From a virus (taxonomy: Duplodnaviria > Heunggongvirae > Uroviricota > Caudoviricetes), in IMG/VR virus record IMGVR_UViG_3300043467_001216: a stretch of DNA of 64,000 bases; one strand, 5' to 3'. The notes under the pieces are model-generated. The model worked only from the letters and a program-made list of their open reading frames with translations. It had not been told where the DNA came from and searched no databases. This document shows, piece by piece, positions 3,162 through 61,545 of the stretch. Each line of letters opens with the position of its first letter. The first letter of the stretch is position 1. A program made the position numbers and the translations under genes.

Positions 3162-4898
3162 ATGAAAAGAGAAAATAGTTTAATATCAAAATTAGTTGAT
3201 AAAGTATTAAATGAAACAATCGAAGAAAGAGCCAATTCTTTAGTTTCAAGATTAAAACATAAAGAAATGAAAGAAACTCATACAGGTTCAAAAATCAAAG
3301 GTATTATCAATAGTATGAAAGGTGAGGTTAACGAACTTGGAGGTATGGATGATGGTCATCCAAAATTAGGTGGTAAAAGATTTAAAAAAGATATGTCAGA
3401 TGACGAAATTGATGATATCCTTAGTCAATTAAGAATGGGTGATGATGATGATTTTGAAGATGGTGTTGATGAAATGCCACCATTTAAAAGAGGACGTGAT
3501 TATGAGGATGATGATTTTGACAATGAACTTGATGAAAATTACGATAGTGAAGAATTACAAAGTCATTTTGATGATAAGGAATATGATGACTTTGATTTTG
3601 AATCGAGTAAAGGTAGACTTAGACCTAATTTAAGAGATTTAGAAGGTGGAACAACGCACGGACGTGAATTTATGAAAGATTTTAAAGATAGAAGTGATTT
3701 TGCTAAGAAATTAAGACGTGGGTTTAGAGGTGAAGAAAACGAGGAACAACTATACGAAATCGAAATGGAACCTCAAGGTGAAGTATGTGAGTGTGGTGGT
3801 GATATGTATGAGGGTGTTTGTAATGAGTGTGGTACATCTTTAGGAATGATGGAAGAATCTGAAGATATTGAAATGAAAGAAACAAATGCTGAAGGATGTA
3901 AGACTGTTAAAGAAGTTGTTAAATCACAAAACGGTGAAGTTACTGAATTAGACCAAGAATTAATGGAAAGATATAATTGTGGTTCTTTAAAAGAATCTTT
4001 AATCCGTAGAGGTCTTATGAAAGAATCTTTAAAAGGTAATCAGAAAAAAATTGACAAAAACAAAAATAATAAAATTGATGCTGAAGATTTTGCGTTATTA
4101 AGAAAAGGTAAAAAAACTGAGACTAAAGAATCATTAAAAGGTGGACAGAAAAAACTTGATAAAAACAAGAATAATAAGATTGACTCTGAAGATTTTGAGA
4201 TGTTAAGAAATGGTAAAAAATCTAAAGATAAAGAAACTGTTACAGTAACTGAAAGTGAGTTGATTTCATTAATTGAAGAAATGGTTAATGAGGAGTTTGA
4301 AACTATTGGTACTAAACCAAGAGGTTTATCTGAATATGAACGAGCTCATAAAAAATCAGGAAGTGAAAACAAAGAGTATTTCAAGTCATTGAAGAAAAAA
4401 ATGGATGATTATCTAAAAGATGGTTCTAAAGGTGATTATGAAGAAAACCCAAAACATTTTCCAAAAGGTAATGGTGAGTTAGAAAAAATGAAAGCTAAAA
4501 AATATACTATGTCTAAAGATGGTGATGAGTTCATTGATGATTTTATGAGACCTGGTATGGAAAATTTAGATTACGATGAAATTCACCCTGACGAAAAATG
4601 GATGGAGGATAATATTGAAGGTTCATCAAGAACAGGAAATAATCCTAAATGGGGTAATGCTGAAGAAACTGAATTAGGTAAAAAACTTAATAAAAAACGT
4701 AAAGACAATAAATTTGCTAAAGCAACTAGACAAGCTTATAATAAATCTGCTCAACCTGTTATATCAGATAAAACGGGTGAAGATAGTGGTAAAGGTCTTA
4801 ATATTAAATTAGAATCTACTGATAAGAAAGAAAAAGTTTTAAATGAAGAATTCATCAAGATTAAAAACTTGATGAGTTACAATAGAAAAACTCAATAA
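3162..4898 (+). CDS. large charged protein with zinc-ribbon-like CxCG..CxxCG and internal 35-aa duplication
   Basis: 578-aa ORF; CECGGDMYEGVCNECG; KESLKG.QKK.DKNKNNKID.EDF..LR.GKK repeated twice. Confidence 0.7.
   Translation: MKRENSLISKLVDKVLNETIEERANSLVSRLKHKEMKETHTGSKIKGIINSMKGEVNELGGMDDGHPKLGGKRFKKDMSDDEIDDILSQLRMGDDDDFEDGVDEMPPFKRGRDYEDDDFDNELDENYDSEELQSHFDDKEYDDFDFESSKGRLRPNLRDLEGGTTHGREFMKDFKDRSDFAKKLRRGFRGEENEEQLYEIEMEPQGEVCECGGDMYEGVCNECGTSLGMMEESEDIEMKETNAEGCKTVKEVVKSQNGEVTELDQELMERYNCGSLKESLIRRGLMKESLKGNQKKIDKNKNNKIDAEDFALLRKGKKTETKESLKGGQKKLDKNKNNKIDSEDFEMLRNGKKSKDKETVTVTESELISLIEEMVNEEFETIGTKPRGLSEYERAHKKSGSENKEYFKSLKKKMDDYLKDGSKGDYEENPKHFPKGNGELEKMKAKKYTMSKDGDEFIDDFMRPGMENLDYDEIHPDEKWMEDNIEGSSRTGNNPKWGNAEETELGKKLNKKRKDNKFAKATRQAYNKSAQPVISDKTGEDSGKGLNIKLESTDKKEKVLNEEFIKIKNLMSYNRKTQ
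4020..4229 (+). repeat. two tandem 105-bp (35-codon) units inside CDS
   Basis: units 4020-4124 and 4125-4229 encode near-identical peptides. Confidence 0.85.
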
Positions 4899-4945
4899 TT
4901 TACTTTACAAAATAACTAATTATTATTTCTCCATAGACTAACTCT

Positions 4946-5410
4946 ATGGAGAATTTTTTTAACTATATAACAAAACCTGTGAGACCTGAAGATGTTGATG
5001 TGTGGTTTAGAAGTAATAACATTATTCCTGAAAAATTGGAATTATTTTATGATTTTACCTATTCACTTAATAAGACAATTGTTGATACGTATTTAGGTAG
5101 TACAACAGGTAATGAAACTAAAATAGTTATGACAACTGATGACATTGAAAATCATTTTAAATGGTGTTGGAATAGAACAGTTGAAAACTTCAAGAAAGAA
5201 AGTATCACATTCAATATTACAGGTGAACATTATGAATATTATAATTCATTTTTCTTAGATACTTTTTATAATCAAAAGAATGATGAGATAAGAAACTCAA
5301 TTGACGGTTTCTTTGATGATTTATTTGATACTCAAAAACCATTTACTAAATCCGATTTAGATATGATATCATCTATCTACAAAGTATTGGAAAAAAATAT
5401 TAGTAAGTAA
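4946..5410 (+). CDS. hypothetical protein
   Basis: 154-aa ORF. Confidence 0.65.
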   Translation: MENFFNYITKPVRPEDVDVWFRSNNIIPEKLELFYDFTYSLNKTIVDTYLGSTTGNETKIVMTTDDIENHFKWCWNRTVENFKKESITFNITGEHYEYYNSFFLDTFYNQKNDEIRNSIDGFFDDLFDTQKPFTKSDLDMISSIYKVLEKNISK

Positions 5411-5488
5411 AAAAATCCCCCTACTATTTACATTAACGACTATAAAATTAAATTATAGTATAATAATAAAATTAAACAATTTAATTAA

Positions 5489-5668
5489 ATGGAAACATTA
5501 GAACAAATCAAAACTTTGACTGAGGAATTGTCAGTTGACGCAACTAAGTTCTTTAAAGGTAATAACAGTGCGGGAACAAGAGCGAGACAATCGGCTCAAA
5601 AATTAAAGAATTTATTACAATCTTTAAGAGAAGAGATTTTAACGGAAAGAAAAAAAGAGGAGAAGTAA
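5489..5668 (+). CDS. histone H1-like small basic DNA-binding protein (Bacteroidetes type)
   Basis: 59-aa ORF below ORF-track cutoff; FFKGNNSAGTRARQSAQKLKNLLQSLREEI matches the ~60-aa H1/Hc1-like proteins common in Bacteroidetes. Confidence 0.5.
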   Translation: METLEQIKTLTEELSVDATKFFKGNNSAGTRARQSAQKLKNLLQSLREEILTERKKEEK

Positions 5669-5856
5669 TGAACGACTTTAATACAATATATCTTTTTGTA
5701 TTTATCTTTTCAATGTTAACTGTGTTAAGAACAGTTTTCAGGTTTATAGTTTCCCTTCTACAAGAATCACCACAAAAATTGGTTCTTAGTAGTAGGGAAC
5801 TAATATTCCTTGCCATTTCAATATCATATTGTTTAACGTATATAATAAAATTTTAA
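5668..5856 (+). CDS. small membrane protein
   Basis: TAATG coupling to upstream ORF; two hydrophobic helices. Confidence 0.4.
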   Translation: MNDFNTIYLFVFIFSMLTVLRTVFRFIVSLLQESPQKLVLSSRELIFLAISISYCLTYIIKF

Positions 5857-5858
5857 TT

Positions 5859-6308
5859 ATGAGTTTATTTACTGAATTTTCTACATTGTTTCCTTATCTA
5901 CAATCTGTTAGAAAATTAAAAAATTATTTAAGTTTTGATGTACATTTTCCAACTAGTTGGAAAATACCTAAGAAGTTTGTTAATGAACAAAAAGTTGTGG
6001 AACAAGAATCTAAATTAGATGGCCATAGATTAATTTCTTTTGTGTCGGAAATTAGTGAAACGTCTGTTGCTGATACGACATCTGATATTCAAAATATTAT
6101 TAAATATAATTTAGATAGGGAAGAAAAAGATAAGTTATTTCAAACTAAGGTTAACGAATTAAAGACTATCTTTGAAAAACAAAATTTAAACAAATTAAAG
6201 AATTTAGTATTTGATTATAAATCTGAAAGAATAACGTTAGATGACGATGATGACACCGAAGAATCCGTTGACGAAGGAAGAGAGATTGTTGGAGAGGGAC
6301 AGGATTAA
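5859..6308 (+). CDS. hypothetical protein
   Basis: start moved to ATG 5859 just after upstream stop. Confidence 0.55.
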   Translation: MSLFTEFSTLFPYLQSVRKLKNYLSFDVHFPTSWKIPKKFVNEQKVVEQESKLDGHRLISFVSEISETSVADTTSDIQNIIKYNLDREEKDKLFQTKVNELKTIFEKQNLNKLKNLVFDYKSERITLDDDDDTEESVDEGREIVGEGQD

Positions 6309-6309
6309 A

Positions 6310-6444
6310 ATGTTTAATGAATTGGAACGTCAAAAGTTACAATTCATTAATAATATTAAACAACAAACTAAAGAGGGTATTTTACCTAAAAAACCTGAAA
6401 AGAAATCGTTATGGAAGAGAATTATAAAAGTGTTGATGGGATAA
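6310..6444 (+). CDS. small hypothetical protein
   Basis: 44 aa from ATG 6310; the longer track ORF overlaps the upstream gene. Confidence 0.35.
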   Translation: MFNELERQKLQFINNIKQQTKEGILPKKPEKKSLWKRIIKVLMG

Positions 6445-6677
6445 TTGAGAAACTAGCGTTGATTAGTGATGCTGTTGACTCGTTATTTCCTGATGGTAGA
6501 AGTGCGGTTGTGTTTCAATTGAAGACTGAGGAGTTTAAGAAAGTACAAAGTAATTTTAGAGAAATTGATAGGGAACACAAACAATTTAAAATTGATATCT
6601 CTGGTGTTGAATTTATTTTTTTTGAGGAAACGTCGTTGACTGACGAAATAAATACTGTTTCGGATAACCAAGATTAA
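6411..6677 (+). CDS. hypothetical protein
   Basis: 88-aa ORF; 3' end overlaps convergent gene by 65 nt. Confidence 0.45.
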   Translation: MEENYKSVDGIIEKLALISDAVDSLFPDGRSAVVFQLKTEEFKKVQSNFREIDREHKQFKIDISGVEFIFFEETSLTDEINTVSDNQD

Positions 6678-7251
6678 CTAACATATCGTAAAGATATTTT
6701 CGTTGTGGGGTGGATGAATCTTTAATAAAGATACAATCCATCCTTTTTTCATTTATATACTTTTGAGATAAGTTATCTATGAAACGTGACGAATCAATTT
6801 CATTCTTAAATGTGAAAAGATTTGTGTTCTCATTTAGTTGAACGATTACCTTATTATTTAGTTTTGAAACCATTTTTAATCCGTCACCCCTTAAATACTT
6901 TTTAATTAATTCCTCACAATTGATTTTCTTTTTAGTGGAATAATCGACAAACTCTTCGTTTATTTTGTAATTGTTTATTTGTAACATACAGTAATCATCG
7001 TCTTCTACGGTAACCTTACTTTGTCTACCAAATTCATCTTTAATGTATATTGTGTTATTTTTTGATTTAGGTCCTAACAACCCTAATTCAAAGGTACTAT
7101 GATACCCGTTTTCGTGTTGTCTGTCAAAAATAACCTCATCACTAATAGATAATAGATTATTATAATACTTTTGAGCCCTATCAATTGTTTTAAATTTCTT
7201 GATAATTTTCTTTTTTAATCTATTTTTGAATAACACTATTATATAGTCCAT
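6613..7251 (-). CDS. hypothetical protein
   Basis: 212-aa minus-strand ORF. Confidence 0.65.
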   Translation of the reverse strand: MDYIIVLFKNRLKKKIIKKFKTIDRAQKYYNNLLSISDEVIFDRQHENGYHSTFELGLLGPKSKNNTIYIKDEFGRQSKVTVEDDDYCMLQINNYKINEEFVDYSTKKKINCEELIKKYLRGDGLKMVSKLNNKVIVQLNENTNLFTFKNEIDSSRFIDNLSQKYINEKRMDCIFIKDSSTPQRKYLYDMLVNLGYPKQYLFRQSTTFPQKK

Positions 7252-7284
7252 ACATAATAAATAATTTTATAAATAAATAAGTAA

Positions 7285-8208
7285 ATGCAAACAAATTATT
7301 ACGACGTACTTGGAGTTAAAGAAAACTCAGACCAAGACACGATTAAAAAAGCTTATAGGTCTTTGGCGAAAAAACATCATCCAGATAAAGGTGGTAATGA
7401 TGAGATGTTTAAGAAAGTTTCTGAAGCTTATGATGTTTTAGGGGATGAAAATAAACGAAGACAATATGATACCCAAAAACAAAACCCATTTCATAATGCA
7501 AGAGGTGGTGGGAATGGATTTAATCCATTTGATGAAATGTTCAATATGTTTAATGGTGGTCGACAAAGACAGAGAACTGTTCCTGATAAAATAATTGATA
7601 TTTTAATAACACCTGTAGAATCCTATAATGCGGTTGATAAACATATTAAATATCAAAGAAAACATATGTGTGTTGATTGTCACGGTAATGGGGGTGATAG
7701 ACAACACTGTGGACATTGTAATGGTACTGGTGTGATAACACAACGAATTGGTACGGGAATGTTTATTCAAATGGTTCAATCGCATTGTAATGTTTGTAAT
7801 GGTGTTGGTTATACATATACTAGAGTTTGTGGGACTTGTAAAGGTTCTTGTACTACTGAAAAAATGGACAGTATTAGTGTTAAATTACCTCACGGAATTG
7901 ATGACGGTCAATTTTTGAAAGTTCAAGGGAGAGGTGATTTTAGTAATGGTATTTATGGTAATTTAATTATTAGAATTAAAGTTAAAAATGATAGTAATTT
8001 TGAGAAATTTGGGGATGATTTAATTTATAATAAATTTTTGAACTTAGATGAATTAAAAGTGGATTCGTTTGTAGTCCCACATCCTTCAGGTGACTTATCA
8101 ATAAAAATACCACCAGTATTTGATTCATCAATACCTTTAAGAGTTAAATCTAAAGGTTATAATAATGGTGAGTTGTATATTAAATTATATGTAAAGTTCA
8201 CACGTTAA
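7285..8208 (+). CDS. dnaJ: type I DnaJ/Hsp40 co-chaperone
   Basis: J domain with HPD (YYDVLGV...KKHHPDKGG); G/F-rich linker; four CxxCxGxG zinc-finger repeats ([32 protein letters not shown]); C-terminal domain. Confidence 0.9.
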
Positions 8209-8433
8209 TTAACGTGTGAACAATGATGCGATATCTTTAACAATTTGAACTAAACCGTAAAATCCAAGAAATAATATTGCAACACCAATGGCAACTAATT
8301 TAAGGTTACCTGATGATAAAGCTTTATTTTTGCAACTTTTACATTCCTTTTTATTTTTATTAGGTTCTGTGTAGTTAGGGACTTCAACTAAGGTTGAAAA
8401 AATTTCTTCTTGATTTGTTTCTTGATTTTCCAT
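8209..8433 (-). CDS. small tail-anchored membrane protein
   Basis: 74 aa with C-terminal hydrophobic helix LKLVAIGVAILFLGFYGLV. Confidence 0.5.
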   Translation of the reverse strand: MENQETNQEEIFSTLVEVPNYTEPNKNKKECKSCKNKALSSGNLKLVAIGVAILFLGFYGLVQIVKDIASLFTR

Positions 8434-8504
8434 ATATTTTAGTATTATTAAATAATAATAATTAGTATTTTTCTAATTTTAAATAATTAAACAAAAAATA
8501 AAAT

Positions 8505-9344
8505 ATGTTATCTTATATTGGTGGTAAAAGTAAAATTGGTAAATGGATAGTTCCATTCATACCTAAAGACATTGAAACGTATGTCGAACCATTTAGTGGT
8601 ATGTATTGGGTTTTCTTCAATATGGATTTGAAAGAGTATCCTAACCTAAAGAAAGTTGTTTACAACGACTTTAACCCACTAAATTATAACCTATTCAAGT
8701 GTGTTCAGAACCCCCAAGAGTTGTTGAAGGCAATCAATTCAATTGAGTGTCAACAATTCGGAGTTGAGGTAACACCACCACACTTAAAAGAACAATTTAT
8801 CAGCTTTCAGGCTGAAATTTTTAAGGAAGGTTTCAGCGTAGAACCTGGTGATTATGTGGTCGCGGCTAAGTATGTGTATGTGTTGACTCAGGTGTTCTCA
8901 GGTTCAAAACCTGAAACCTCATCATATATTGACTTGAAAGGTAAATACAAATCAAAGTATCTAACATTTAGAGATAAGTTAAGTAAACCTGATTGGGTAG
9001 AACATTTCTTAAAGATAACTCACGTTGAGAATATGGACTTTGCTGATGTAATAACTAAGTATGATGGTGAGAAAAGTTATTTCTATACTGACCCGCCATA
9101 TTGGAAGACTGAGAATTACTATTCAAATCACGACTTCGATAGAAACGACCACGAGAGATTGGCAAATACACTAAAAGGTATTCAAGGTAAGTTCTCATTA
9201 TCTTATTATGATTTTGAAATATTATCTGAGTGGTTTCCAAAAAATGAGTATATTTGGGAGAGTAAACTATTCGCCAAAGCGGCAGCAGCTAAAAAAGGTA
9301 AAACACAAACTATGGGTGAAGAGTTATTAATTATGAATTATTAA
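8505..9344 (+). CDS. DNA N6-adenine methyltransferase, D12 (Dam-like) class
   Basis: YIGGKSKI, EPFSGMYWVFF (SAM-binding) and YTDPPYW (DPPY catalytic motif). Confidence 0.85.
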   Translation: MLSYIGGKSKIGKWIVPFIPKDIETYVEPFSGMYWVFFNMDLKEYPNLKKVVYNDFNPLNYNLFKCVQNPQELLKAINSIECQQFGVEVTPPHLKEQFISFQAEIFKEGFSVEPGDYVVAAKYVYVLTQVFSGSKPETSSYIDLKGKYKSKYLTFRDKLSKPDWVEHFLKITHVENMDFADVITKYDGEKSYFYTDPPYWKTENYYSNHDFDRNDHERLANTLKGIQGKFSLSYYDFEILSEWFPKNEYIWESKLFAKAAAAKKGKTQTMGEELLIMNY

Positions 9345-9362
9345 TTATTTTTGAATTTAGTA

Positions 9363-9377
9363 ATATTTATAGATAAA
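9363..9377 (+). promoter_or_regulatory. ATATTTAT-type upstream motif
   Basis: ATATTTATAGATAAA 8 nt before ATG 9386. Confidence 0.4.
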
Positions 9378-9385
9378 AATAAAGT

Positions 9386-10771
9386 ATGAAAATAACATCA
9401 GTTTTAAGGAACATATTATTAGAAGATTCACGATTTGAAAATTTATATACTAAATTTGTTGAACCTGCTCCGTCGAAAGACCCTGCTAAACCAAATAAAC
9501 CTAAACTTAAATTCGATACGTTAAAGCAATTTATATTTGCTGACCCTACGTCAAAGATGCCTGAGGATGTTGATGCTGAAGGTTTATCGTTAGCCGATAT
9601 TAGAAATTTAGGTAATAAGTTTAAAGTAGGTGCTTATACTCAATGGTTGTTGAAAAACTTCTTTAAACCGACTTTCCAAGGAGACCAAGCGAATGTTGAC
9701 CCATCAAGTCCTGAATATAAGGAAATGGTGAAGGAATTCAGACGTTTATTCCTTGAGGATTTGTTTAAGATGAATGATATTATCGGAAAGTTTGAACGTG
9801 TTAAACCATTAATACCGGCAGAACAACGTGATATTAATTCATATACACCGACAACGTTAACAAATTTAATTCTTAATTTACCTGAAGAATTAAAAGCTAA
9901 GATTCAAACTAAGGATGTAAAATCTCAGGCGAGAGAAGAAAGAAAGGCTAACAGATTCGCCCATCCAGGTGCTACAATTATGAAAGAGGGTACTAACTAT
10001 ACTTTAATTAAAATTGAAGGGACTGATACACCTCAGAAAGAGGCGGCACAGTGGTATGGTGGATTCTATGACTATATGAATGGTGAGTCACATTGGTGTA
10101 CTTCACCTCCGGGGTCTAACTACTTTATGACTTACGCATCGGCAGGTCCATTATATGTGATTATGGCTAACGATGATAAAGGACAGGTGGGTGCAAGAAC
10201 AGGACTTCCAACTGAAAGATACCAAATCAACTTCCCTAAAAACCAATTTATGGATAGAATGGACGGTAGATTTGATGTTGTTGAGAAATTCAATGGAGAC
10301 TTCGCTGAGTTTAAAGAAATCCTTAAACCTGAATTTGCAAAAGGATTCGTTATTCCAAATACTGATGAGGTTGAAATTACATATCCTGGAAGTTCTGCGG
10401 GTGTATTCATCGCATTATATGGATTTGATGATTTGATTAAATCATTACCAAAAACTATTAAACAGTTACACGTAAGTAATACTTCAAACACACCTGTTTA
10501 TTTAGATTTAAGTGATGCTATTGGTGAATTCACTGAATTAGATACGATATTATTACATAATGTTGTAAAAGAAATTCCTGAGTCAATCGGTAATCTTAGA
10601 AACTTAGATATATTGTCATTGACTGATAATAAAGAATTGAGAACATTACCAAAATCTATTCTTAATTTAGAAAATCTAACTTTCTTAGTGTTAACAGGTA
10701 GTAATGTTGATTTAGGTGATATGTCAGAGAACTTTTTTGAAACTGCTGACGGAGTTTATGCACTTGCTTAA
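9386..10771 (+). CDS. leucine-rich-repeat protein with PcfJ-like central motif
   Basis: C-terminal LRRs (IPESIGNLRNLDILSLTDNKELRTLPKSILNLENLTFLVL); central ESHWCTS..Y..GPLYVIM. Confidence 0.7.
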   Translation: MKITSVLRNILLEDSRFENLYTKFVEPAPSKDPAKPNKPKLKFDTLKQFIFADPTSKMPEDVDAEGLSLADIRNLGNKFKVGAYTQWLLKNFFKPTFQGDQANVDPSSPEYKEMVKEFRRLFLEDLFKMNDIIGKFERVKPLIPAEQRDINSYTPTTLTNLILNLPEELKAKIQTKDVKSQAREERKANRFAHPGATIMKEGTNYTLIKIEGTDTPQKEAAQWYGGFYDYMNGESHWCTSPPGSNYFMTYASAGPLYVIMANDDKGQVGARTGLPTERYQINFPKNQFMDRMDGRFDVVEKFNGDFAEFKEILKPEFAKGFVIPNTDEVEITYPGSSAGVFIALYGFDDLIKSLPKTIKQLHVSNTSNTPVYLDLSDAIGEFTELDTILLHNVVKEIPESIGNLRNLDILSLTDNKELRTLPKSILNLENLTFLVLTGSNVDLGDMSENFFETADGVYALA

Positions 10772-10786
10772 TAAAAAAACATAAAT

Positions 10787-11083
10787 ATGAAAAATTTAGA
10801 AGTTGATTTATACATCACACAATTTAGAGGTTTCTTCGATAAGAACCCAAATGACTTACTCTCTTTGATTGGTGATGTTTTGGTTGAAGATTTTTTTAAA
10901 CGTGTTGAAGAACAATGTTATAAAAATCTTGAGAAAGGTGATGAAGTATCTGTGACTAGACAACAACTAATTGATATTGTTGTCGACCTTAAATCGGAGG
11001 AGTCTGAATTTGAGAAAGACTTTAAGAGTTCAATCACAAAAGTATTCGAACATACTAAATTTGGAGACATCTGTCTTAACTAA
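10787..11083 (+). CDS. hypothetical protein
   Basis: 98-aa ORF followed by terminator. Confidence 0.6.
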   Translation: MKNLEVDLYITQFRGFFDKNPNDLLSLIGDVLVEDFFKRVEEQCYKNLEKGDEVSVTRQQLIDIVVDLKSEESEFEKDFKSSITKVFEHTKFGDICLN

Positions 11084-11085
11084 TT

Positions 11086-11112
11086 AAAACCCCCAAGACC
11101 TGGGGGTTTTTT
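11086..11112 (+). terminator. rho-independent terminator
   Basis: CCCCCA-agacc-TGGGGG followed by a T-run. Confidence 0.85.
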
Positions 11113-11173
11113 ATTATCTGAAAAAAAAAACAATTATTTTTTGTTGGGTGCTTGTACAATTAGATTTTATACA

Positions 11174-11181
11174 TATCTTTG
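11174..11181 (+). promoter_or_regulatory. Bacteroidetes-type -7 box
   Basis: TATCTTTG fits TAnnTTTG, 21 nt before ATG 11203. Confidence 0.5.
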
Positions 11182-11202
11182 ATAAACCAAAACGATAGAG
11201 AT

Positions 11203-11967
11203 ATGAGAAACACAGTTATGACATTAGACCAAGTAAAAGAAGTAGCACCATCAGTATTCGCTACAAGTGCATCACCAAAAGTATCTAACAGATACACATT
11301 CGTTCCAACCGTGGACATCGTAGAGAACTTCCAAAGAGAGGGATGGGAGATTGCAAGTGTTAAACAAACAGGTAAAGGTGTTCACGGATTACACGAAATC
11401 AAATTCCGTAATGGTGAGTTACCAAAAGTTGGTGACACATTGGTTGAGGCTATCGTTAAGAACTCACACAATGGTATGGCAACATTAAATATCTCCGCAG
11501 GACTACACAGATTGGTATGTGCTAACGGATTGACTGTCCCAACTTCATTGTCTGAGTCATTCAAAGTAAGACACACAGGTTTCGAGTTAGACGACGTTAA
11601 ACGTTTGACTGAGGACTTCTCAAAAAGATTACCATTAATCGAAGGGTCAGTGAACCGAATGATGGAGAGAGAGTTATCAACTGACGAGAAGTTGGACTTC
11701 GTTAGAAAATCCGCTGAGCTTCGTTGGAAAACAGGTTCAATTCCTGTGACATTGGACTACGAGGAAATCTTGAATCCATTGAGAGATGCTGACAACGGGG
11801 ATTCACTTTGGCAAGTATTCAACGTGGTTCAAGAGAAGTGGGTTAGAGGAGGTATCCAATACAAATCTAACGGTGGTCGTAAAACACAACTTAGAACGTT
11901 GAACGACATCTTGAACACCAACCGAATCAACACAAAACTTTGGGAGTTGGCTGAGGAAATGTTCTAA
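11203..11967 (+). CDS. DUF932 family protein (plasmid/ICE-associated)
   Basis: KNSHNGMATLNISAGLHRLVCANGL matches the DUF932 signature NSHDGS..GL.RLVC.NG; start moved from TTG 11179 to ATG 11203. Confidence 0.75.
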   Translation: MRNTVMTLDQVKEVAPSVFATSASPKVSNRYTFVPTVDIVENFQREGWEIASVKQTGKGVHGLHEIKFRNGELPKVGDTLVEAIVKNSHNGMATLNISAGLHRLVCANGLTVPTSLSESFKVRHTGFELDDVKRLTEDFSKRLPLIEGSVNRMMERELSTDEKLDFVRKSAELRWKTGSIPVTLDYEEILNPLRDADNGDSLWQVFNVVQEKWVRGGIQYKSNGGRKTQLRTLNDILNTNRINTKLWELAEEMF

Positions 11968-11973
11968 GACAAT

Positions 11974-11996
11974 GGGGAGTAAAATCCCCTTTTTTT
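11974..11996 (+). terminator. rho-independent terminator
   Basis: GGGGA-gtaaaa-TCCCC followed by T7. Confidence 0.8.
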
Positions 11997-12020
11997 ATTA
12001 TCAGGTATTGAATTATTTAT

Positions 12021-12028
12021 TATATTTG
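12021..12028 (+). promoter_or_regulatory. Bacteroidetes-type -7 box
   Basis: TATATTTG only 4 nt before ATG 12033. Confidence 0.5.
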
Positions 12029-12032
12029 TGGT

Positions 12033-13772
12033 ATGGAAGTATTGTTAGACATTAAATCAGTTAAAAGTTCTGTAAATATATACAAGAATTATTGCCCATT
12101 AGAAATTGAAGATATTTTCGGGAAAGGGTCTTTTGATGCTAAAACGTTATATTCAGATAGTAAAAGACATACACATTACGAATTTGATAAATCTGAGGAA
12201 ATAAGTGGTTCTGACTTGTTTGACAAATATAAAAACGACCAATTATGTTCACCTTCAATAAATAGAAAAAGTGTTGAGGTATTAAAGAGTAATGAAAAGG
12301 TGACGATTAAAATTTATCGTTACAATTTACATAGAGAAATAGGGAAACCGTATTTCAGAAAATCAACCTCGTATGTTTCATTAACATATAATATTAAACG
12401 TAATCAGTTTTATTTCTTTCTTATTAACAATTATCACAAGAAAAGAAATTTTAGTAAAACACTTAGATGTCTTAGTCCGTACTTGATATTGAATCATTTC
12501 CGACACCACTTAGTTGATACTTTATCTAATCGTGATGATGTTGATAAAGTCTTTAATGTTTTTTTTAAAGGTATTTACGAAGATATGGTTAATTACGTTG
12601 ATTTACTTGAATACGTTGTTAAAAAACAAGGGTTTAAATTACCGAACAATTTTGATGTATTCGCTGATGCTATCGGTGGTAATGGTTTCTATGGTAGAAC
12701 ACCAACTAAATTAGATGGTAAGAGAAATGGGTTTAAATATATTGATACCATTATGGGTATTAACATTTTGAAGGGGGATAAACTTAGACGAGTATTACAT
12801 AAGGTATCAGGATTTAATTTGGGTTTATATTATGAAATGGCTAGTTACTTTAAGGATGATTTTATTTTATCAAGACCTGATGAGGACCTAATTAAAATCT
12901 TTAATTCAAATATTAGTTATTCATCATTAAATGGGAGTGTCTTGATGACTAGGCAAGAAAAAATTAATATGTATAATATTATTATGGAGTTGATTAATAC
13001 TAATAGTAGTGATTTGTATTCAATTTCTGACCATTTAAATATTAAAAATAAATTGTCTAAATACGAAACTGTGAAGTGGAAATCTAAAACATATGATGAG
13101 TTTGTTGATGAGCACGACGAATGGTCACGTAATTTAGATTCATACACTAAAGGTGTAACACAAAGAAGATATAATAAAGAGTTCCTTAATCACATTGAAA
13201 AACCGTTTGAAATGGATGGTATTAAATACTACCCTGTTGTTTTAAACAGTAGTGATGATTATAATAGAGAATCAACTGTTCAAACAAACTGTGTTAGAAC
13301 TTATATCCATTATGCTCATTCATTGATTGTGTCATTACGTAGAGATAGTAAAGACAGTTATGAAAGATTAACTATTGAGGTGAATTTAATACCTGATGAG
13401 GATGTTAGATTATTAAGAAAACAAACTAAGGCAAAGAGAAATTCAACACCTGACGATAGTTGGAGTTTAGCGACTCGTGAACTTGATGACAGAATTGAGT
13501 TTATTAATAAGAATGGGTTATTTACTTTACCTGAAATGGACGTAATTTATACACGAGGTTTACCTAGACACGCAAAGGTTGATAATAGACTGATTCACAA
13601 TGATGGTTACAGTTATTGGACTGTATGTTGGGATGATGAAGAAGTTGACTCTATTACTGGTCTGTCATATTTCCCTGTGATTGATGATGAGGTAACCCAA
13701 GATGAAATTGATTATTTATTAACTAATAACACTCCGAATTATGTTACGGAGGATGATGATTTACCATTATGA
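12033..13772 (+). CDS. PcfJ-like domain protein
   Basis: 579-aa ORF; TNCVRTYIHYAHSLIVSLRRDSKDSYERLTIEV resembles the PcfJ core (HCV..Y...I.SLR...TLE); recalled from memory, not searched. Confidence 0.6.
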   Translation: MEVLLDIKSVKSSVNIYKNYCPLEIEDIFGKGSFDAKTLYSDSKRHTHYEFDKSEEISGSDLFDKYKNDQLCSPSINRKSVEVLKSNEKVTIKIYRYNLHREIGKPYFRKSTSYVSLTYNIKRNQFYFFLINNYHKKRNFSKTLRCLSPYLILNHFRHHLVDTLSNRDDVDKVFNVFFKGIYEDMVNYVDLLEYVVKKQGFKLPNNFDVFADAIGGNGFYGRTPTKLDGKRNGFKYIDTIMGINILKGDKLRRVLHKVSGFNLGLYYEMASYFKDDFILSRPDEDLIKIFNSNISYSSLNGSVLMTRQEKINMYNIIMELINTNSSDLYSISDHLNIKNKLSKYETVKWKSKTYDEFVDEHDEWSRNLDSYTKGVTQRRYNKEFLNHIEKPFEMDGIKYYPVVLNSSDDYNRESTVQTNCVRTYIHYAHSLIVSLRRDSKDSYERLTIEVNLIPDEDVRLLRKQTKAKRNSTPDDSWSLATRELDDRIEFINKNGLFTLPEMDVIYTRGLPRHAKVDNRLIHNDGYSYWTVCWDDEEVDSITGLSYFPVIDDEVTQDEIDYLLTNNTPNYVTEDDDLPL

Positions 13773-14119
13773 TACCAGAACATTGTATAAAATATTTTGA
13801 AGCGAAATATGAAATTTATCCCTCCAATTGTCAGGTGATAATGTCTGAGGAATTATTTAAAAAATTAGTTAGTCGTAGTGAATTACTTTGGTGTAGACAC
13901 TCAATAACAGGTGGTGTGGATAAAATGGAATCGTCATTACATTCTTTTCACGAAACAGGTATTTATATTTACTTAGATGAAATAAGGGCGAACCAAATCG
14001 GTGCGTCGACTAAAACAATAAATGAGTATAAAGTTTACTTTATGTATGAAATTAGTAAAAAACATATCGTTGACTTTACAATAAACCAAATAATAAAACA
14101 AAACAAAAATGGAAATTAG
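13769..14119 (+). CDS. hypothetical protein
   Basis: ATGA overlap with upstream gene. Confidence 0.6.
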   Translation: MIPEHCIKYFEAKYEIYPSNCQVIMSEELFKKLVSRSELLWCRHSITGGVDKMESSLHSFHETGIYIYLDEIRANQIGASTKTINEYKVYFMYEISKKHIVDFTINQIIKQNKNGN

Positions 14120-14432
14120 TAGTTCTGAATTACAAGAAAAAATTAACAAAGGTGAAAAATTAGTAGTTGACTTTTGGGCTGAGTGGTGTGGACCGTGTAG
14201 AATGCAAAAACCAATCTTCGAACAAGTTAGTCAGACAGCTATCGAAAACAAGTCAGAGGTGTCGTATTACACATTCAACGTCGAATCTGATAAAATATTC
14301 GCAGCGTCATTAGGTATTAGAAGTATTCCAACAATCAAATCATTTTCAAATGGTGGTGAGGTTACTACTAAAGTTGGTCTTATGGATGAATCACAATTAA
14401 AATCATTAGAGTCAATATTAATTAATGGGTAA
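14109..14432 (+). CDS. trxA: thioredoxin
   Basis: WAEWCGPCRMQKP active site; thioredoxin length. Confidence 0.9.
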   Translation: MEISSSELQEKINKGEKLVVDFWAEWCGPCRMQKPIFEQVSQTAIENKSEVSYYTFNVESDKIFAASLGIRSIPTIKSFSNGGEVTTKVGLMDESQLKSLESILING

Positions 14433-14712
14433 GTTATTAATTTTATATACGATGGACGGTTGTCCTTTCTGTCAAATGATGAAAGAGAAGTTAATTGAAT
14501 CTAACATCATTTATTATGAACGTGACATTGACGAGCATAAAGATGAGTATGACTTGTTTGTGGAAATTACGGAAAACGATTATGTTCCTGCGTTTATGAT
14601 AATAGAGGGTGATGATGAAAAACAACCAATTACATCATTGTACGCACCTGATAGGGATTTCAACGACTTAGATGAAGGTATTGAAATAATTAAAAACAAA
14701 ATGATTCTATAA
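14425..14712 (+). CDS. glutaredoxin/NrdH-like redoxin
   Basis: N-terminal CPFC motif; 95 aa. Confidence 0.75.
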   Translation: MGKLLILYTMDGCPFCQMMKEKLIESNIIYYERDIDEHKDEYDLFVEITENDYVPAFMIIEGDDEKQPITSLYAPDRDFNDLDEGIEIIKNKMIL

Positions 14713-14741: not shown

Positions 14742-15548
14742 TTAAAAGATAATACAGTTATTTGTTTGGTCTTTAAATAACCAAGGTTTAGGACCGAAGG
14801 GTTCGTCAATATCTTTGGTGAACTCATATGTTGATAATGTATGTTTGAATGATTCTAAATCAAAATTAAATACATCTAGCACCATTGATTTAATTACTTC
14901 ATCATTATACATTGAATCCGTTTTAATCTCAATCATAAAATCTTCATCTTCATCAATCCTTGTTGAGATTTTAAATGTTAATTTTTTTGAACTAATACTT
15001 GTCATAATGTTATGGGCGATATATTCAGAATAATAATAATGTATTCGACCCATATTTAGACTGTAACCGTGAGGGAATTCAGATGTGATTGTTATTGGGG
15101 GGTAAATGAAATTAGGTAATACGTCAATATCGGTACTTAAAAAATCAATTTCATATACTAAATCATTTGTGATTGAAAGGGAATTATCTAAACTTGCGTT
15201 TTGAATTATGAAGTCGGAGTATATTGGTCTTGATGTGTTATAGAATGTGAACCAATAGTCTTCTTGTTTTTTAGGACTAACGTCGTATTCGACTAAATCA
15301 ACAAGGTTAAGGTCTTTATATCCCAACACCTCTAAAACGTCTTTATTTTCTTTTAAAAACGATTCTTTAATGTGTGTAAGGTCTAATGGTTTCTCATATG
15401 ACGTGAATCCGTTAATTATAACAAATTTACCACAATCTGAGGTTTCAATTACAGAGTCATAATCACCTAACTTATTAATTTCATTTAGGATATGGTCCGC
15501 AAATTTGTTAACTATACCTCTATTTCTTTTAGGGTTAATGTATTTCAT
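14742..15548 (-). CDS. hypothetical protein
   Basis: 268-aa minus-strand ORF. Confidence 0.65.
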   Translation of the reverse strand: MKYINPKRNRGIVNKFADHILNEINKLGDYDSVIETSDCGKFVIINGFTSYEKPLDLTHIKESFLKENKDVLEVLGYKDLNLVDLVEYDVSPKKQEDYWFTFYNTSRPIYSDFIIQNASLDNSLSITNDLVYEIDFLSTDIDVLPNFIYPPITITSEFPHGYSLNMGRIHYYYSEYIAHNIMTSISSKKLTFKISTRIDEDEDFMIEIKTDSMYNDEVIKSMVLDVFNFDLESFKHTLSTYEFTKDIDEPFGPKPWLFKDQTNNCIIF

Positions 15549-23618: not shown

Positions 23619-24539
23619 ATGATAGATACTTTTAACATAAATGACGGTAGTTTAAACAACCAAGTGTTCAACTATAATGGGAATACAGGGTGGCAAGTAT
23701 GGAACAAACCACCTAAATGTAATTTAGTGAATTTCTTTTTAGTTGGTGGTGGTGCCGGTGGTCAAGGTGGTATTATTAATTCTGCCGCCAATCGTAATGG
23801 AGGTGCGGGAGGTGGTTCTGCCGCCTTTTCATATATAACCGTTCCAGCATTTGCAATTCCCGATACTTTATATATATTAGTGGCAAGTGGTGGAACAGGA
23901 GGTGCGTCAAGTGGTGGTGCCGGTGGTCAAGGAAGTCTTAGTTATGTCTGTTCTGTACCTGATACGTCAACTGTTAATAATATATTAATGAGGAGTGGTT
24001 CGGCGAATGCGGGTGTTACAACAACAACAACTGCGGGTGCGGCAATTACTGTTGCGGATATTTTATTAGCTGAGGCTGCGTTTATTTCAGGATATGCGGG
24101 TCAAACAGGTGGTGCGGGTGGTGTAACAAGTACTCCTGCGGTTGATATAACACCAACAGGTATTCCATTCACATCAGGTGCGGGTGGTGCTGGATGTGGT
24201 TCGACAGGAACGTTAGGTGTTGCGGGGGATATCGTAGGTATTTTAGATTTCCCAATTATCTCAGGTGGTACAAATACATCATCGGCAGGTGCGACTGCGG
24301 GTTCGGGAAATAACGGATTTTCGACAAGAGAAAGTTTTACTAGCCAAAATTATAAATATCCTATGTTCTTTACAGGAGGTGCCGGTGGTGGTGCAGCCTC
24401 TAACGCAACAGGTGTTGGAGGACGTGGTGGTGATGGAGCCTATGGTTGTGGTGGAGGAGGTGGTGGTGCCGGTGGAAACACAACTGCGGGACGTGGTGGT
24501 GATGGTGGTCACGGATTAGTTATAATTACAGTTACATAA
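23619..24539 (+). CDS. glycine-rich domain protein (paralog 1)
   Basis: MIDTFNI...WQVWNKP..C..V.FFLVGGGAGGQGG...GGAGGGSA...L.ILV..GGTGG...GGDGGHGLVIIT; Gly_rich-type pattern. Confidence 0.75.
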   Translation: MIDTFNINDGSLNNQVFNYNGNTGWQVWNKPPKCNLVNFFLVGGGAGGQGGIINSAANRNGGAGGGSAAFSYITVPAFAIPDTLYILVASGGTGGASSGGAGGQGSLSYVCSVPDTSTVNNILMRSGSANAGVTTTTTAGAAITVADILLAEAAFISGYAGQTGGAGGVTSTPAVDITPTGIPFTSGAGGAGCGSTGTLGVAGDIVGILDFPIISGGTNTSSAGATAGSGNNGFSTRESFTSQNYKYPMFFTGGAGGGAASNATGVGGRGGDGAYGCGGGGGGAGGNTTAGRGGDGGHGLVIITVT

Positions 24540-24542
24540 AAT

Positions 24543-25487: not shown

Positions 25488-25496
25488 TATTATAAA

Positions 25497-26493: not shown

Positions 26494-27357
26494 ATGGAAA
26501 ATTATATAGGAAAAATTATAAATGGTGATTGTGTTGATGTTATGTCAGAAATGCCAATAAACTCAATTGACTTAATTGTAACGTCACCCCCATACGGAGT
26601 TGGGATTGCCTATGATGTTCACGATGATGATATGTATATTGATGAATATTTGAAATTTACAACCAAATGGTTAACACAAGCATATCAGATATTAAAAGAT
26701 GATGGAAGGATTGCGATAAACATTCCTTATGAAATTAATAGACAGGACAAAGGTGGAAGAATTTTCTTTTGTTCTGAGGTTTATCAGGTAATGAAAAGAA
26801 TTGGATTTAAATTCTTTGGTATTGTTGACCTTGAAGAAGATTCTCCTCATCGTAGTAAAACTACGGCTTGGGGTAGTTGGATGTCACCTTCAAGTCCTTA
26901 CATATATAATCCAAAAGAATGTGTTATATTAGCCTACAAACACAAACATATTAAAACAGTTAAAGGTGAACCACAATGGAAAGGAATGCCAACTGAGATT
27001 GAACAAGAAGATGGGACAGTTAAGAAAAAAGTTGTCTATGATGAAATGGATAAGAAAGAGTTTATGGAATTGGTGTTTGGTCAGTGGAAATATTTTGCTG
27101 ATACTAAATCGTTAACAAAAGCGACTTTCTCTATGGATATCCCAACTAAGGCGATTAAAATATTGTCATATAAGAATGACGTAATATTGGACCCATTTGC
27201 GGGTTCAGGAACAAGTTTGGTTGCTGCTGAAACATTGGATAGACGATGGGTGGGTATTGAATTATCACCAAATTATGCTGAGATAGCTTGGAAACGAGTC
27301 CAAGGATTTGTGGACCAAAAAAAACAACAAGAATTAGAATTCGAAAAGGGGGAATAA
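26494..27357 (+). CDS. DNA methyltransferase, beta-class N4-cytosine/N6-adenine
   Basis: DLIVTSPPYG (motif IV) is N-terminal; DPFAGSGTSLVAAE (motif I) is C-terminal; SPPY favours m4C but is not decisive. Confidence 0.85.
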   Translation: MENYIGKIINGDCVDVMSEMPINSIDLIVTSPPYGVGIAYDVHDDDMYIDEYLKFTTKWLTQAYQILKDDGRIAINIPYEINRQDKGGRIFFCSEVYQVMKRIGFKFFGIVDLEEDSPHRSKTTAWGSWMSPSSPYIYNPKECVILAYKHKHIKTVKGEPQWKGMPTEIEQEDGTVKKKVVYDEMDKKEFMELVFGQWKYFADTKSLTKATFSMDIPTKAIKILSYKNDVILDPFAGSGTSLVAAETLDRRWVGIELSPNYAEIAWKRVQGFVDQKKQQELEFEKGE

Positions 27358-42507: not shown

Positions 42508-44172
42508 ATGAGAAATATATTAGCCGAACAAATTAGTAAGATGCAATCTATGATGGGTATTCAAGATGACTTACTACTTGAAGCTTCGAAATTAAAAATA
42601 TTAACAGACAAAGAAGGTTTAGACCAAGACCAAGCGGAATTACTTGATGAGTTATGCGGTGGGTTATCGGTTTGGATGTTAAGTAAGATAAAAGATTTCC
42701 AAAGAGAAACGGCTAGAATTAGAAATATGGAGGATTTATCCGATAAAGCAATGATTAATTTAATAAATGTCAATGGGTTAACTAGTAGGATAAGACCAAA
42801 CATTATTAATGTTATGGATTGGGTTCGAGTTGGGTTGAATAGTAATGTTAAACCATTTAAAAACTTAACATTACAAGAGTTAGATAAGAAAGCTAAGGAA
42901 TGGCACGAATCATTGAGTATTGGTCAAGGTGATATTAATTATGTTGAGAAAAATGACATAATTAAAGACTTCCGTGATGAAAATGGTAATGGGTTTTATT
43001 GGGCTGACTTGAATACTAAGGATTCGAAGGAAGAGTCTGAAAGAATGGGTCACTGTGGTCGTTCAAATTATGGGTATATATATTCATTAAGAGAAACAAA
43101 ACCTATTAATGATAAATTCAAAATCAATAGAAGTCATTTAACAACCGCAATTGGACATGATGGTATTATGTATCAATTAAAAGGTCCTAAGAACTCTAAA
43201 CCTAAAGAAGAATACCATAACTACATTTTACCATTGTTTTATGTGTTAGGTGGTGAAGGTGAAGAAGATGATTATTTAGTTAAAGGATTTGGAACCGAAT
43301 ACGCGTCACAACAGGATTTCAAATTAAGTGACTTACCTGATGATGTTATCAGAGAGTTATATCGAAATAGACCTGAATTGTTTGAAGGTAGAGTGATGAT
43401 GAGAAAATTGGTTGATATGGGTATAATTGATGCTCCTAATGTTAACTATAATATTACACTTAATATAGACCCTGATGATGTTACAAGATATGTTGATGGT
43501 GATTACGTTTATAGAAGATATAAGAAAAAGGTTACAACACCTGCGGGTCAAGAATATGAAAGAACTGTTGAAGTTACAATGTTTGAATTAATATTAGCGG
43601 GAGAAACTTGGGATTTATATTATAATGACTATACGGATTGGAGAGATTGTCTTAACTATTACGTAGATGATAAGAATGAACAAGAAATTAGAGAAATTTT
43701 AAGAAAAGTTGCTGAACGTGATGATGATGAATTCATTGCTGAAGATTTTGACGAAATGGATATTGAGGATATTATTGAAGAATATGATGATAATCATAGT
43801 ATACAAAGTGCGTTAGGTAATGCTCAAAGTAACGCTGAAGCGGATGATTACTCTAATTATTTATATGGATTATTAAAAGATGCGTTACAAGAATATGGGA
43901 CAATTGAGAAAATGAATGATGAGGGGGTAATCTTACATATAGATACACAACGATATTTTGATGATGTTCATTCTGATTATCTTGATGAATATTTTGAAAG
44001 ATGTGATGATGATATTGAATGTACCTTTAAGGAACTTGCGTATGAAGGTGAAATTGAAAAACCAAAGTGGGACCCTGATGATAGATGGTATCCAAGCGTT
44101 GATAAAAATAACTATAATGAAATGTTATCCGATTATCTCTACGATGTAAGAAGTGAATATAATGTAAAATAA
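42508..44172 (+). CDS. acidic protein with PcfJ-like motif
   Basis: 554-aa ORF; ERMGHCGRSNYGYIYSLRE...SHLTTAI; D/E-rich C-terminal half. Confidence 0.65.
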   Translation: MRNILAEQISKMQSMMGIQDDLLLEASKLKILTDKEGLDQDQAELLDELCGGLSVWMLSKIKDFQRETARIRNMEDLSDKAMINLINVNGLTSRIRPNIINVMDWVRVGLNSNVKPFKNLTLQELDKKAKEWHESLSIGQGDINYVEKNDIIKDFRDENGNGFYWADLNTKDSKEESERMGHCGRSNYGYIYSLRETKPINDKFKINRSHLTTAIGHDGIMYQLKGPKNSKPKEEYHNYILPLFYVLGGEGEEDDYLVKGFGTEYASQQDFKLSDLPDDVIRELYRNRPELFEGRVMMRKLVDMGIIDAPNVNYNITLNIDPDDVTRYVDGDYVYRRYKKKVTTPAGQEYERTVEVTMFELILAGETWDLYYNDYTDWRDCLNYYVDDKNEQEIREILRKVAERDDDEFIAEDFDEMDIEDIIEEYDDNHSIQSALGNAQSNAEADDYSNYLYGLLKDALQEYGTIEKMNDEGVILHIDTQRYFDDVHSDYLDEYFERCDDDIECTFKELAYEGEIEKPKWDPDDRWYPSVDKNNYNEMLSDYLYDVRSEYNVK

Positions 44173-61461: not shown

Positions 61462-61531
61462 AGCGGAGTAGTGTAATTGGTAACATATTGGATTGTCTCC
61501 TTTGATGTGGGTTCGAGTCCCATCGCCGCAA
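61462..61531 (+). tRNA. tRNA-like RNA 7 (70 nt; poor anticodon stem)
   Basis: D arm GTGT-AATTGGTA-ACAT; T arm GTGGG-TTCGAGT-CCCAT; acceptor has two mismatches; the anticodon region TTGGA-TTGTCTC-CTTTG pairs poorly. Confidence 0.45.
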
Positions 61532-61545
61532 CTAAAATTTAAATT

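Follow-up and report, generated by a model that had tools for sequence, protein, structure and literature searches.

Orphan methylases are a main class of genes in the leading regions of conjugative plasmids (PMC11541004). In the same regions YubP, also known as UPF0380, DUF932 or PF06067, ranks as the third largest family (leading-region family 3 in Supplementary file 3 of Samuel et al. 2024, PMC11541004); it counts 4661 members, and its median position relative to oriT is 1. The orientation of YubP is taken to permit transcription from the incoming strand and the family is labelled as putatively anti-restriction, while a 'PcfJ-like' family is listed among the other unknown leading-region families (PMC11541004). 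Approximately 10% of leading-region families bear phage annotations, and it has been proposed that plasmids and phages share anti-defence mechanisms (PMC11541004). The PcfK domain is carried by the anti-CRISPR protein AcrIIA9 (PMC6739104). No paper giving DUF932 or PcfJ a function was found in our literature search; one preprint concerns an integrated plasmid in which DUF932 mutations were selected under phage pressure. The current study examines a phage locus with a comparable set of genes, contained in a 64,000-nucleotide (nt) stretch of the Caudoviricetes record IMGVR_UViG_3300043467_001216 (IMG/VR), hereafter referred to as the window, in which a DNA methyltransferase, a leucine-rich repeat (LRR) protein, a DUF932 protein and a PcfJ-family protein are encoded within 5 kb. 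A first-pass annotation made from the sequence alone had regarded these genes as a toolkit shared with plasmid leading regions, and all open reading frames (ORFs) that it named are indeed present at the positions it gave (Table 1).

The premise of that annotation, namely that DUF932 and PcfJ are typical of early-entering plasmid regions and that methylases travel there, is supported by the above literature and by the plasmids themselves. DUF932 matched at least 5000 PLSDB plasmids, 87% of which are conjugative, and in an IncF plasmid it is located between ssb/ParB/psiB/hok and traM, i.e. in the leading region. In an Enterococcus faecalis pCF10-type plasmid (L096), PcfJ (113 bits) overlaps a PcfK gene that lies upstream of it and bears the annotation 'Cas9 inhibitor AcrIIA9 family'; the surrounding region (3514-9456) encodes a DnaJ-domain protein, DUF3850, SSB, a nuclease, a toxin-antitoxin pair, PcfM, PcfK and PcfJ. 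This plasmid region opens with a J-domain protein, thereby echoing the DnaJ with which the phage block begins.

Comparison of the window with 84 related loci (L003-L086), among which L007 is the closest relative and L008 served as a second pairwise reference, points to a different history for the phage genes. The explanation that fits best as a whole, and which we hold with moderate confidence, is that the block is a mosaic of three layers, probably early-acting and under strong defence pressure. The first layer is a vertically inherited scaffold composed of DnaJ, the D12 methylase, the 461-residue LRR protein (LRR461), the small protein g98, the PcfJ-family protein, g116, thioredoxin and glutaredoxin. 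The second is a DUF932/YubP unit that some of the phages carry between g98 and PcfJ and others lack, and the third is the pair formed by PcfJ and g116, which diverges far faster than its surroundings.

The DUF932 assignment of the first-pass annotation was borne out, as the ORF scored 95.5 bits against PF06067 (gathering cut-off 23) and covered profile positions 5-216 of 227. The longest ORF begins with a TTG codon at 11179, but the ATG at 11203 agrees better with the ortholog alignment and is the likely start. Residues H72, N95, G99, R111, C114, N116, G117, L118, H132, Q218, G224 and G225 are invariant in an alignment whose members include one homolog from an IncF plasmid and two from cultured phages. 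The gene is found in 55 of the 84 loci (approximately two thirds), each time between g98 and PcfJ, and is flanked in the window by two terminator-like hairpins (11086-11110 and 11974-11989). When compared to L008, positions 11174-12002 display 90.7% nucleotide identity and the flanks 65-72%, while at 4-fold degenerate sites DUF932 reaches an identity of 0.76 and the other genes 0.43-0.59. Its optional presence, the bracketing hairpins and this step in identity identify DUF932 as a laterally exchanged, self-contained cassette, a moron-like unit of approximately 830 bp that has recently moved between diverged phages.

A Bacteroidetes-type element of the form TTG-N19-TAnnTTTG precedes DUF932 at 11152-11181 (cTTG-N19-TATCTTTG); the full motif occurs five times in the window against 2.4 expected, and is not enriched. 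An additional Bacteroidetes-type element, TATATTTG, is located at 12021-12028, 4 nt 5' of the PcfJ ATG.

The 579-residue protein encoded at 12033-13772 (PcfJ579) is a divergent but real member of the PcfJ family. Against the Pfam PcfJ profile (PF14284) it scored 23.0 bits (E 7.4e-5), just below the cut-off of 25, and 20 of 32 orthologs matched the profile at E <= 0.01 (best 3.6e-6). A custom hidden Markov model (HMM) built from eight cultured-phage PcfJ C-termini, seeded on Brochothrix A9 gp163 (75.6 bits on Pfam PcfJ), matched PcfJ579 as the sole ORF of the window (E 2.2e-6), together with 87 of the 90 members of its family. Foldseek comparison of its AlphaFold model (pLDDT 83) to BFVD retrieved eight PcfJ or PcfJ-like targets in addition to A9 gp163 (E 2.7e-9 to 1.3e-3, probability 0.98-1.0). 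Annotated PcfJ proteins from Myoviridae and Siphoviridae genomes, Listeria phage LP-064 and Brochothrix phage A9 were matched at E 2.7e-9 to 4e-5 and probability 1.0, and the closest structure of all comes from an 'uncultured Caudovirales phage'. The large PcfJ-like protein proposed in the first-pass annotation thus stands on the custom HMM, the orthologs and the fold, and falls just short at the Pfam threshold. An exhaustive profile search yielded 726 PcfJ579-family clusters at 50% identity, 440 of these at E <= 1e-30, and the best 150 consisted of orthologs throughout, with no bridge to other families. Fifty metagenomic homologs were found in a word-indexed protein search, and tblastn of PcfJ579 against cultured phages and plasmids gave no match. 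With regard to a PcfK partner, neither g98 nor g116 nor DUF932 matched PcfK.

PcfJ579 and g116 are set apart from the remainder of the block by their rate of divergence. Median identity across relatives is 32.6% for PcfJ579 and 28% for g116, compared to 46-78% for their neighbours. Nucleotide identity to L007 falls from approximately 90-97% to 47-77% exactly across 12033-14100 and is at least about 90% again at 14109. In the same comparison the amino acid identity of PcfJ is 0.61, with most neighbouring genes at 0.89-0.99, and its synonymous-site identity is moderately lowered (0.55 versus approximately 0.75). The two reading frames overlap, and PcfJ and g116 are probably translationally coupled.

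Two further PcfJ-like motifs had been proposed in the first-pass annotation, and neither could be upheld. The proteins encoded at 9386-10771 and 42508-44172 gave no match to Pfam PcfJ even at E <= 10, this profile matched none of the 24 sequences examined from the 42508 family, and custom PcfJ HMMs scored below 8 bits on both proteins. Pairwise comparison of the three putative PcfJ families by hhalign returned probabilities of 0.2-1.3%, and BLASTP between the three proteins produced chance-level alignments only. The third motif, at 42508, consequently fails in all of these comparisons, whereas the 9386 protein retains the C-terminal LRRs ascribed to it and loses the PcfJ-like motif. In both proteins a short motif with an invariant Cys (GES-x-WCTS at 9386 and ERMGHCG at 42508) looks on visual inspection like the PcfJ signature, and near this motif the predicted secondary structure of the 9386 protein (AlphaFold pLDDT 84) bears a loose resemblance to that of PcfJ579. 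These features make a very remote kinship to PcfJ conceivable, yet without support.

LRR461 is a member of a very large family of phage proteins, which exceeds 1782 clusters at 90% identity, and its unassigned N-terminal/central region contains an invariant G-E-S-x-W-C-T-S ... G-P-L-Y; the C-terminal LRRs resemble those of type III effectors, and some relatives carry two tandem copies. The family of the 42508 protein (g554) encompasses at least 946 clusters, has an invariant E-R-M-G-H-C-G as well as C499/D502/C505, and is not assigned to any Pfam entry. The one relative from a cultured phage is a hypothetical protein encoded by Salicola phage SCTP-2 (440 kb).

The order of genes around the block is strongly kept, in approximately 80 related loci, and reads g212 (- strand), DnaJ, D12 methylase, LRR461, g98, (DUF932), PcfJ579, g116, thioredoxin, glutaredoxin, g268 (- strand), g503 and g254. 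DnaJ, which represents the upstream anchor, is syntenic at 67 of the 84 loci. In this sense the clustering is beyond chance, and it reflects vertical descent inside one phage clade. The block is a non-structural backbone component of that clade and was not recently acquired from a conjugative element. The window ORFs that were scanned included no relaxase or type IV secretion system (T4SS), and no tra or oriT genes lie near DUF932. The window also encodes proteins with Amidase_2 and DUF3310 domains, together with one match to a virion structural PHROG. Coding is dense and for the most part on the + strand, with a GC content of approximately 31%. A profile search located PcfJ579 relatives on 245 viral contigs of IMG/VR, several measuring 200-320 kb (maximum 322 kb), and megablast of 12 kb against cultured phages returned no match. 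The clade comprises large, uncultivated, low-GC phages, with weak hints of Bacteroidota hosts: besides the Bacteroidetes-type promoter elements mentioned above, one LRR461 homolog is present in a metagenome-assembled genome that carries the label Bacteroidota, and among cultured phages the closest DUF932 belongs to a Flavobacterium phage. The distance from the block to the contig end was considered as a proxy for the genome terminus and was dropped, as the distances proved inconsistent on a hand check of contig positions.

Both methyltransferase genes were confirmed, with a qualification in the case of the first. The protein encoded at 8505-9344 is a D12-class enzyme (MethyltransfD12, PF02086, 87.2 bits; cut-off 22) whose DPPY motif aligns to DpnM and 7m6b, but its matches to 7m6b and DpnM reach 33 and 25 bits only and its score against TIGR00571 (dam) is 62.2 bits, well short of the cut-off of 114.85. 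The designation 'Dam-like' in the first-pass annotation consequently holds for the class and not for the Dam subfamily, this enzyme being a distant relative of true Dam. The enzymes of the T4 Dam, P1 Dam and DpnM class share its D12-class fold and DPPY motif, whereas the window enzyme lies under the Dam threshold in a genome devoid of GATC. With a median identity of 76% across relatives it is among the best-conserved proteins of the block. The second methyltransferase, at 26494-27357, scored 118 bits against PF01555 (N6_N4_Mtase) and showed weak similarity to NCBIfam CcrM (79.6 bits, far under the cut-off). The neighbours of both methylases gave no match to a nuclease domain, and several of them, e.g. 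27404-28477, are without any annotation.

Counts of short sites in the window revealed pronounced depletion. GATC does not occur (approximately 180 expected), nor does GCGC (16 expected), and CATG occurs seven times (170 expected), while GANTC, with 177 occurrences for 178.5 expected, is not depleted. GATC is missing from approximately 63 of 68 distinct related loci, and the loss of CATG is confined to some lineages. Since the window contains no GATC, the D12 methylase cannot guard GATC sites of the phage itself, and this fact, taken with its remoteness from Dam and DpnM, implies that it either modifies another motif or acts on DNA other than that of the phage. Complete loss of GATC is known as a means of restriction avoidance in Staphylococcus phage K, and the phenomenon itself is thus not new.

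The DUF932 protein belongs to the same Pfam family as the YubP proteins of F-like plasmids and of Escherichia coli cryptic prophages (YafZ, YfjQ) and is of similar length (approximately 255-273 aa), and the IncF YubP homolog shares with it the invariant H, R, C-x-N-G-L, H and Q. Unlike plasmid YubP, to which its identity is approximately 30%, the phage gene lies away from oriT and constitutes its own terminator-bracketed unit moving between phages. The family is present in 27 cultured-phage records, including Flavobacterium phage immuto and jumbo phages of the GAP32/CBB type, where it likewise occurs amid small uncharacterised genes (28-33% identity) but, in the two contexts inspected, adjoins neither PcfJ nor a methylase, in contrast to the situation in the window. 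Overall, DUF932 is about equally far from its plasmid and phage homologs (approximately 33-34% identity). YfjB/HerB, which was also considered, is a ParB-like protein with no relation to the genes of the block.

PcfJ579 and the PcfJ of the pCF10-type plasmid share a C-terminal signature, E-x(3)-M/Q-x-N/H-C-V-x-x-Y ... L-R, although the latter protein is 419 aa long, scores 113 bits and overlaps PcfK, whereas PcfJ579 has 579 aa, scores 23 bits and has no PcfK partner. Among cultured phages the PcfJ domain is found in at least 232 records, mostly with Bacillus, Enterococcus, Lactobacillus or Staphylococcus hosts. These proteins, for the most part from Herelleviridae (Brochothrix A9 gp163, Listeria LP-064, and Bacillus, Enterococcus, Lactobacillus and Staphylococcus phages), are approximately 470-680 aa long with a C-terminal PcfJ domain and exhibit whole-length structural similarity to PcfJ579 at 10-14% identity in structural alignments. 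In eight cultured phages that were inspected (L088-L095, six of them Herelleviridae), PcfJ typically resides within nucleotide-metabolism/replication modules, its neighbours comprising ThyA (thymidylate synthase), dihydrofolate reductase (DHFR), ribonucleotide reductase (RNR), PhoH, gyrase, RNase H and a gene annotated as thioredoxin. Most of the eight have an unannotated upstream partner of approximately 255-335 aa, which is neither DUF932 nor PcfK, and in none of the inspected cultured phages did DUF932 or PcfK adjoin PcfJ. Each of the families in the block is thus already known in phages, while the DUF932-PcfJ adjacency is peculiar to the present clade because of an insertion. The anti-defence islands of plasmid leading regions (PMC11541004) combine orphan methylases with YubP/DUF932 and PcfJ-like families, and the phage block likewise brings together a methylase, DUF932 and PcfJ; unlike these islands, it is a backbone region of a phage and not a leading region ordered by entry.

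In the mechanism that we propose, the clade is subject to strong restriction pressure, as evidenced by the full loss of GATC and the nearly full loss of CATG and GCGC, and both methylases would protect sequences that the phage has not purged, hence not GATC. DUF932 may serve in anti-restriction or establishment shortly after the DNA has entered the cell, a role also presumed for plasmid YubP, and PcfJ together with g116 may engage a variable host or competitor target, which we propose as the reason for their diversification. The membership of DUF932 in the YubP leading-region family and the position of canonical PcfJ beside PcfK/AcrIIA9 render a counter-defence or establishment role for the DUF932 and PcfJ of the block plausible. 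The arrangement of the genes, their family assignments, the movement of DUF932 and the divergence of PcfJ and g116 are established by the data, whereas it is by association that we infer this role, as well as the timing of expression and all of the biochemistry; the proposal as a whole draws on association, mobility and divergence. Several results weigh against this interpretation. As regards expression timing, a sigma-70 promoter scan remained at chance level, and the Pfam, PHROGs and NCBIfam scans, which comprise no dedicated anti-defence library, detected no ArdA, KlcA, Acr, PsiB or SSB among the approximately 35 ORFs. PDB sequences included no relative of DUF932 by profile and none of PcfJ by sequence, and a separate fold search with the PcfJ579 model returned no match. 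Relaxed constraint, rather than an arms race, can underlie fast divergence, and synonymous divergence of PcfJ is also elevated. Conservation of the D12 methylase in a GATC-free genome is unexplained if the enzyme is a true Dam. Finally, the placement of PcfJ amid nucleotide-metabolism and replication genes in Herelleviridae, and beside thioredoxin and glutaredoxin in the window, fits a role in DNA metabolism as well.

The latter point underlies the main rival explanation, according to which PcfJ579, together with g116, assists DNA replication or nucleotide metabolism as an accessory factor and lies close to DUF932 and the methylase by coincidence. The company of PcfJ in the eight cultured phages agrees with this, as do the redox genes downstream of the pair in the window and the SSB and nuclease genes of the pCF10-type region. 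Replication proteins are usually among the best-conserved genes of a phage, whereas PcfJ579 is the least conserved large gene of its block, and the gene that canonical PcfJ overlaps on plasmids belongs to an anti-CRISPR family; an accessory role of this kind is a real, if rather doubtful, possibility. The strong form of the first-pass proposal, in which methylase, LRR protein, DUF932 and PcfJ form one co-functioning toolkit, shared whole with leading regions and including three PcfJ paralogs, is quite improbable. The families do lie within 5 kb in an order kept by many relatives, and DUF932, PcfJ-like proteins and orphan methylases are each enriched in leading regions. However, two of the three PcfJ calls fail, the backbone is vertical, DUF932 is optional and moves alone, PcfJ579 has no plasmid match, DUF932 is no closer to plasmid than to phage homologs, and DUF932 and PcfJ do not adjoin in the other phages or plasmids examined, so that transfer as a single set is contradicted. 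It is also conceivable that the methylase acts on host DNA, in which case a GATC-free phage would mark or disturb GATC sites of its host, with consequences for replication or repair, or for attack by a methyl-dependent nuclease, while remaining untouched itself. The complete absence of GATC from 64 kb and from most related loci, combined with the high conservation of the methylase, would agree with such an activity. Nevertheless, a different target site would be the simpler explanation for an enzyme so remote from characterised GATC methylases, the loss of GATC amounts to plain restriction avoidance in Staphylococcus phage K, and no methyl-dependent nuclease was identified; we consider action on host DNA very unlikely.

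A more far-reaching combination of these ideas would hold that DUF932/YubP is a mobile anti-restriction or establishment gene circulating among phages and conjugative plasmids, that PcfJ and g116 together constitute a novel counter-defence module of two proteins on which diversifying selection acts, and that the methylase may act on host DNA. We regard this combination as unlikely; were it true, the clade, whose natural alleles run into the hundreds and which includes variants with and without DUF932, would provide a comparative system for assigning functions to two of the commonest unknown leading-region families. YubP/DUF932 is the third most abundant family of plasmid leading regions and typically the first gene after oriT. 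The occurrence of DUF932 as a discrete cassette and of PcfJ with g116 as a hypervariable pair fits genes that meet host defences, and it supplies natural variants for tests, so that the clade may help to find functions for both families. Overall, the observation of the first-pass annotation holds in part, while its interpretation finds partial support but goes too far and was largely foreshadowed by published work. The practical gain is modest, given that all three families are known in phages and that the sharing of anti-defence functions between plasmids and phages has already been published (PMC11541004).

Table 1. Location of the genes and sequence elements of the block, and of two proteins encoded elsewhere in the window.
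Feature	Position	Strand	Evidence or remark
DnaJ, full length (J domain, zinc-finger domain, C-terminal domain)	7285..8208	+	DnaJ 82.9, DnaJ_C 66.3, DnaJ_CXXCXGXG 34 bits (Pfam)
D12-class N6-adenine DNA methyltransferase	8505..9344	+	PF02086 87.2 bits; phrog_56 156 bits; DPPY motif
LRR461, 461 aa, C-terminal leucine-rich repeats	9386..10771	+	Pfam LRR matches at the C-terminus only
g98, conserved 98-aa protein	10787..11083	+	Kept in 79/84 loci
Terminator-like hairpin, 10-bp stem followed by T run	11086..11110	+	Directly 3' of g98, near upstream limit of DUF932 unit
DUF932 cassette, upstream spacer to terminator	11174..12002	+	Identity step versus L008; presence/absence pattern
DUF932/YubP-family protein	11203..11967	+	PF06067 95.5 bits; phrog_12094 126 bits
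Terminator-like hairpin, GGGGAGTAAAATCCCC followed by T7	11974..11989	+	Directly 3' of DUF932
PcfJ579, 579-aa PcfJ-family protein, domain at approximately residues 340-470	12033..13772	+	Fastest-diverging large gene of the block
g116, small protein	13769..14119	+	Start overlaps PcfJ579 stop codon (ATGA)
Thioredoxin (14109-14432) and glutaredoxin (14425-14712)	14109..14712	+	Downstream anchor; Pfam matches on orthologs; 83/84 loci
Second DNA methyltransferase, N6_N4 class	26494..27357	+	PF01555 118 bits
g554, 554 aa, invariant E-R-M-G-H-C-G motif	42508..44172	+	Outside PcfJ family; not part of the block finding

Scans of g98 with Pfam, PHROGs and NCBIfam all returned no match. Downstream of the block, the conserved 268-aa protein encoded at 14742-15548 on the - strand gave a weak match to the C-terminal domain of S-adenosylmethionine (SAM) synthetase (19.4 bits, E 0.001), which could be relevant to methylation or SAM-dependent restriction. 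Near the block, the related contigs L003 and L005 carry genes for glutamine synthetase, SmpB, an Hc1 histone-like protein and sugar-nucleotide enzymes, which are unusual auxiliary genes for a phage. At 23619-26459 three paralogs are arranged in tandem (306, 314 and 320 aa), each with a glycine-rich Gly_rich_2 domain, and coincide with a local GC peak of 45.8% against the approximately 31% of the window. The sole tRNA gene noted is a tRNA-Thr (TGT) at 61462-61532.

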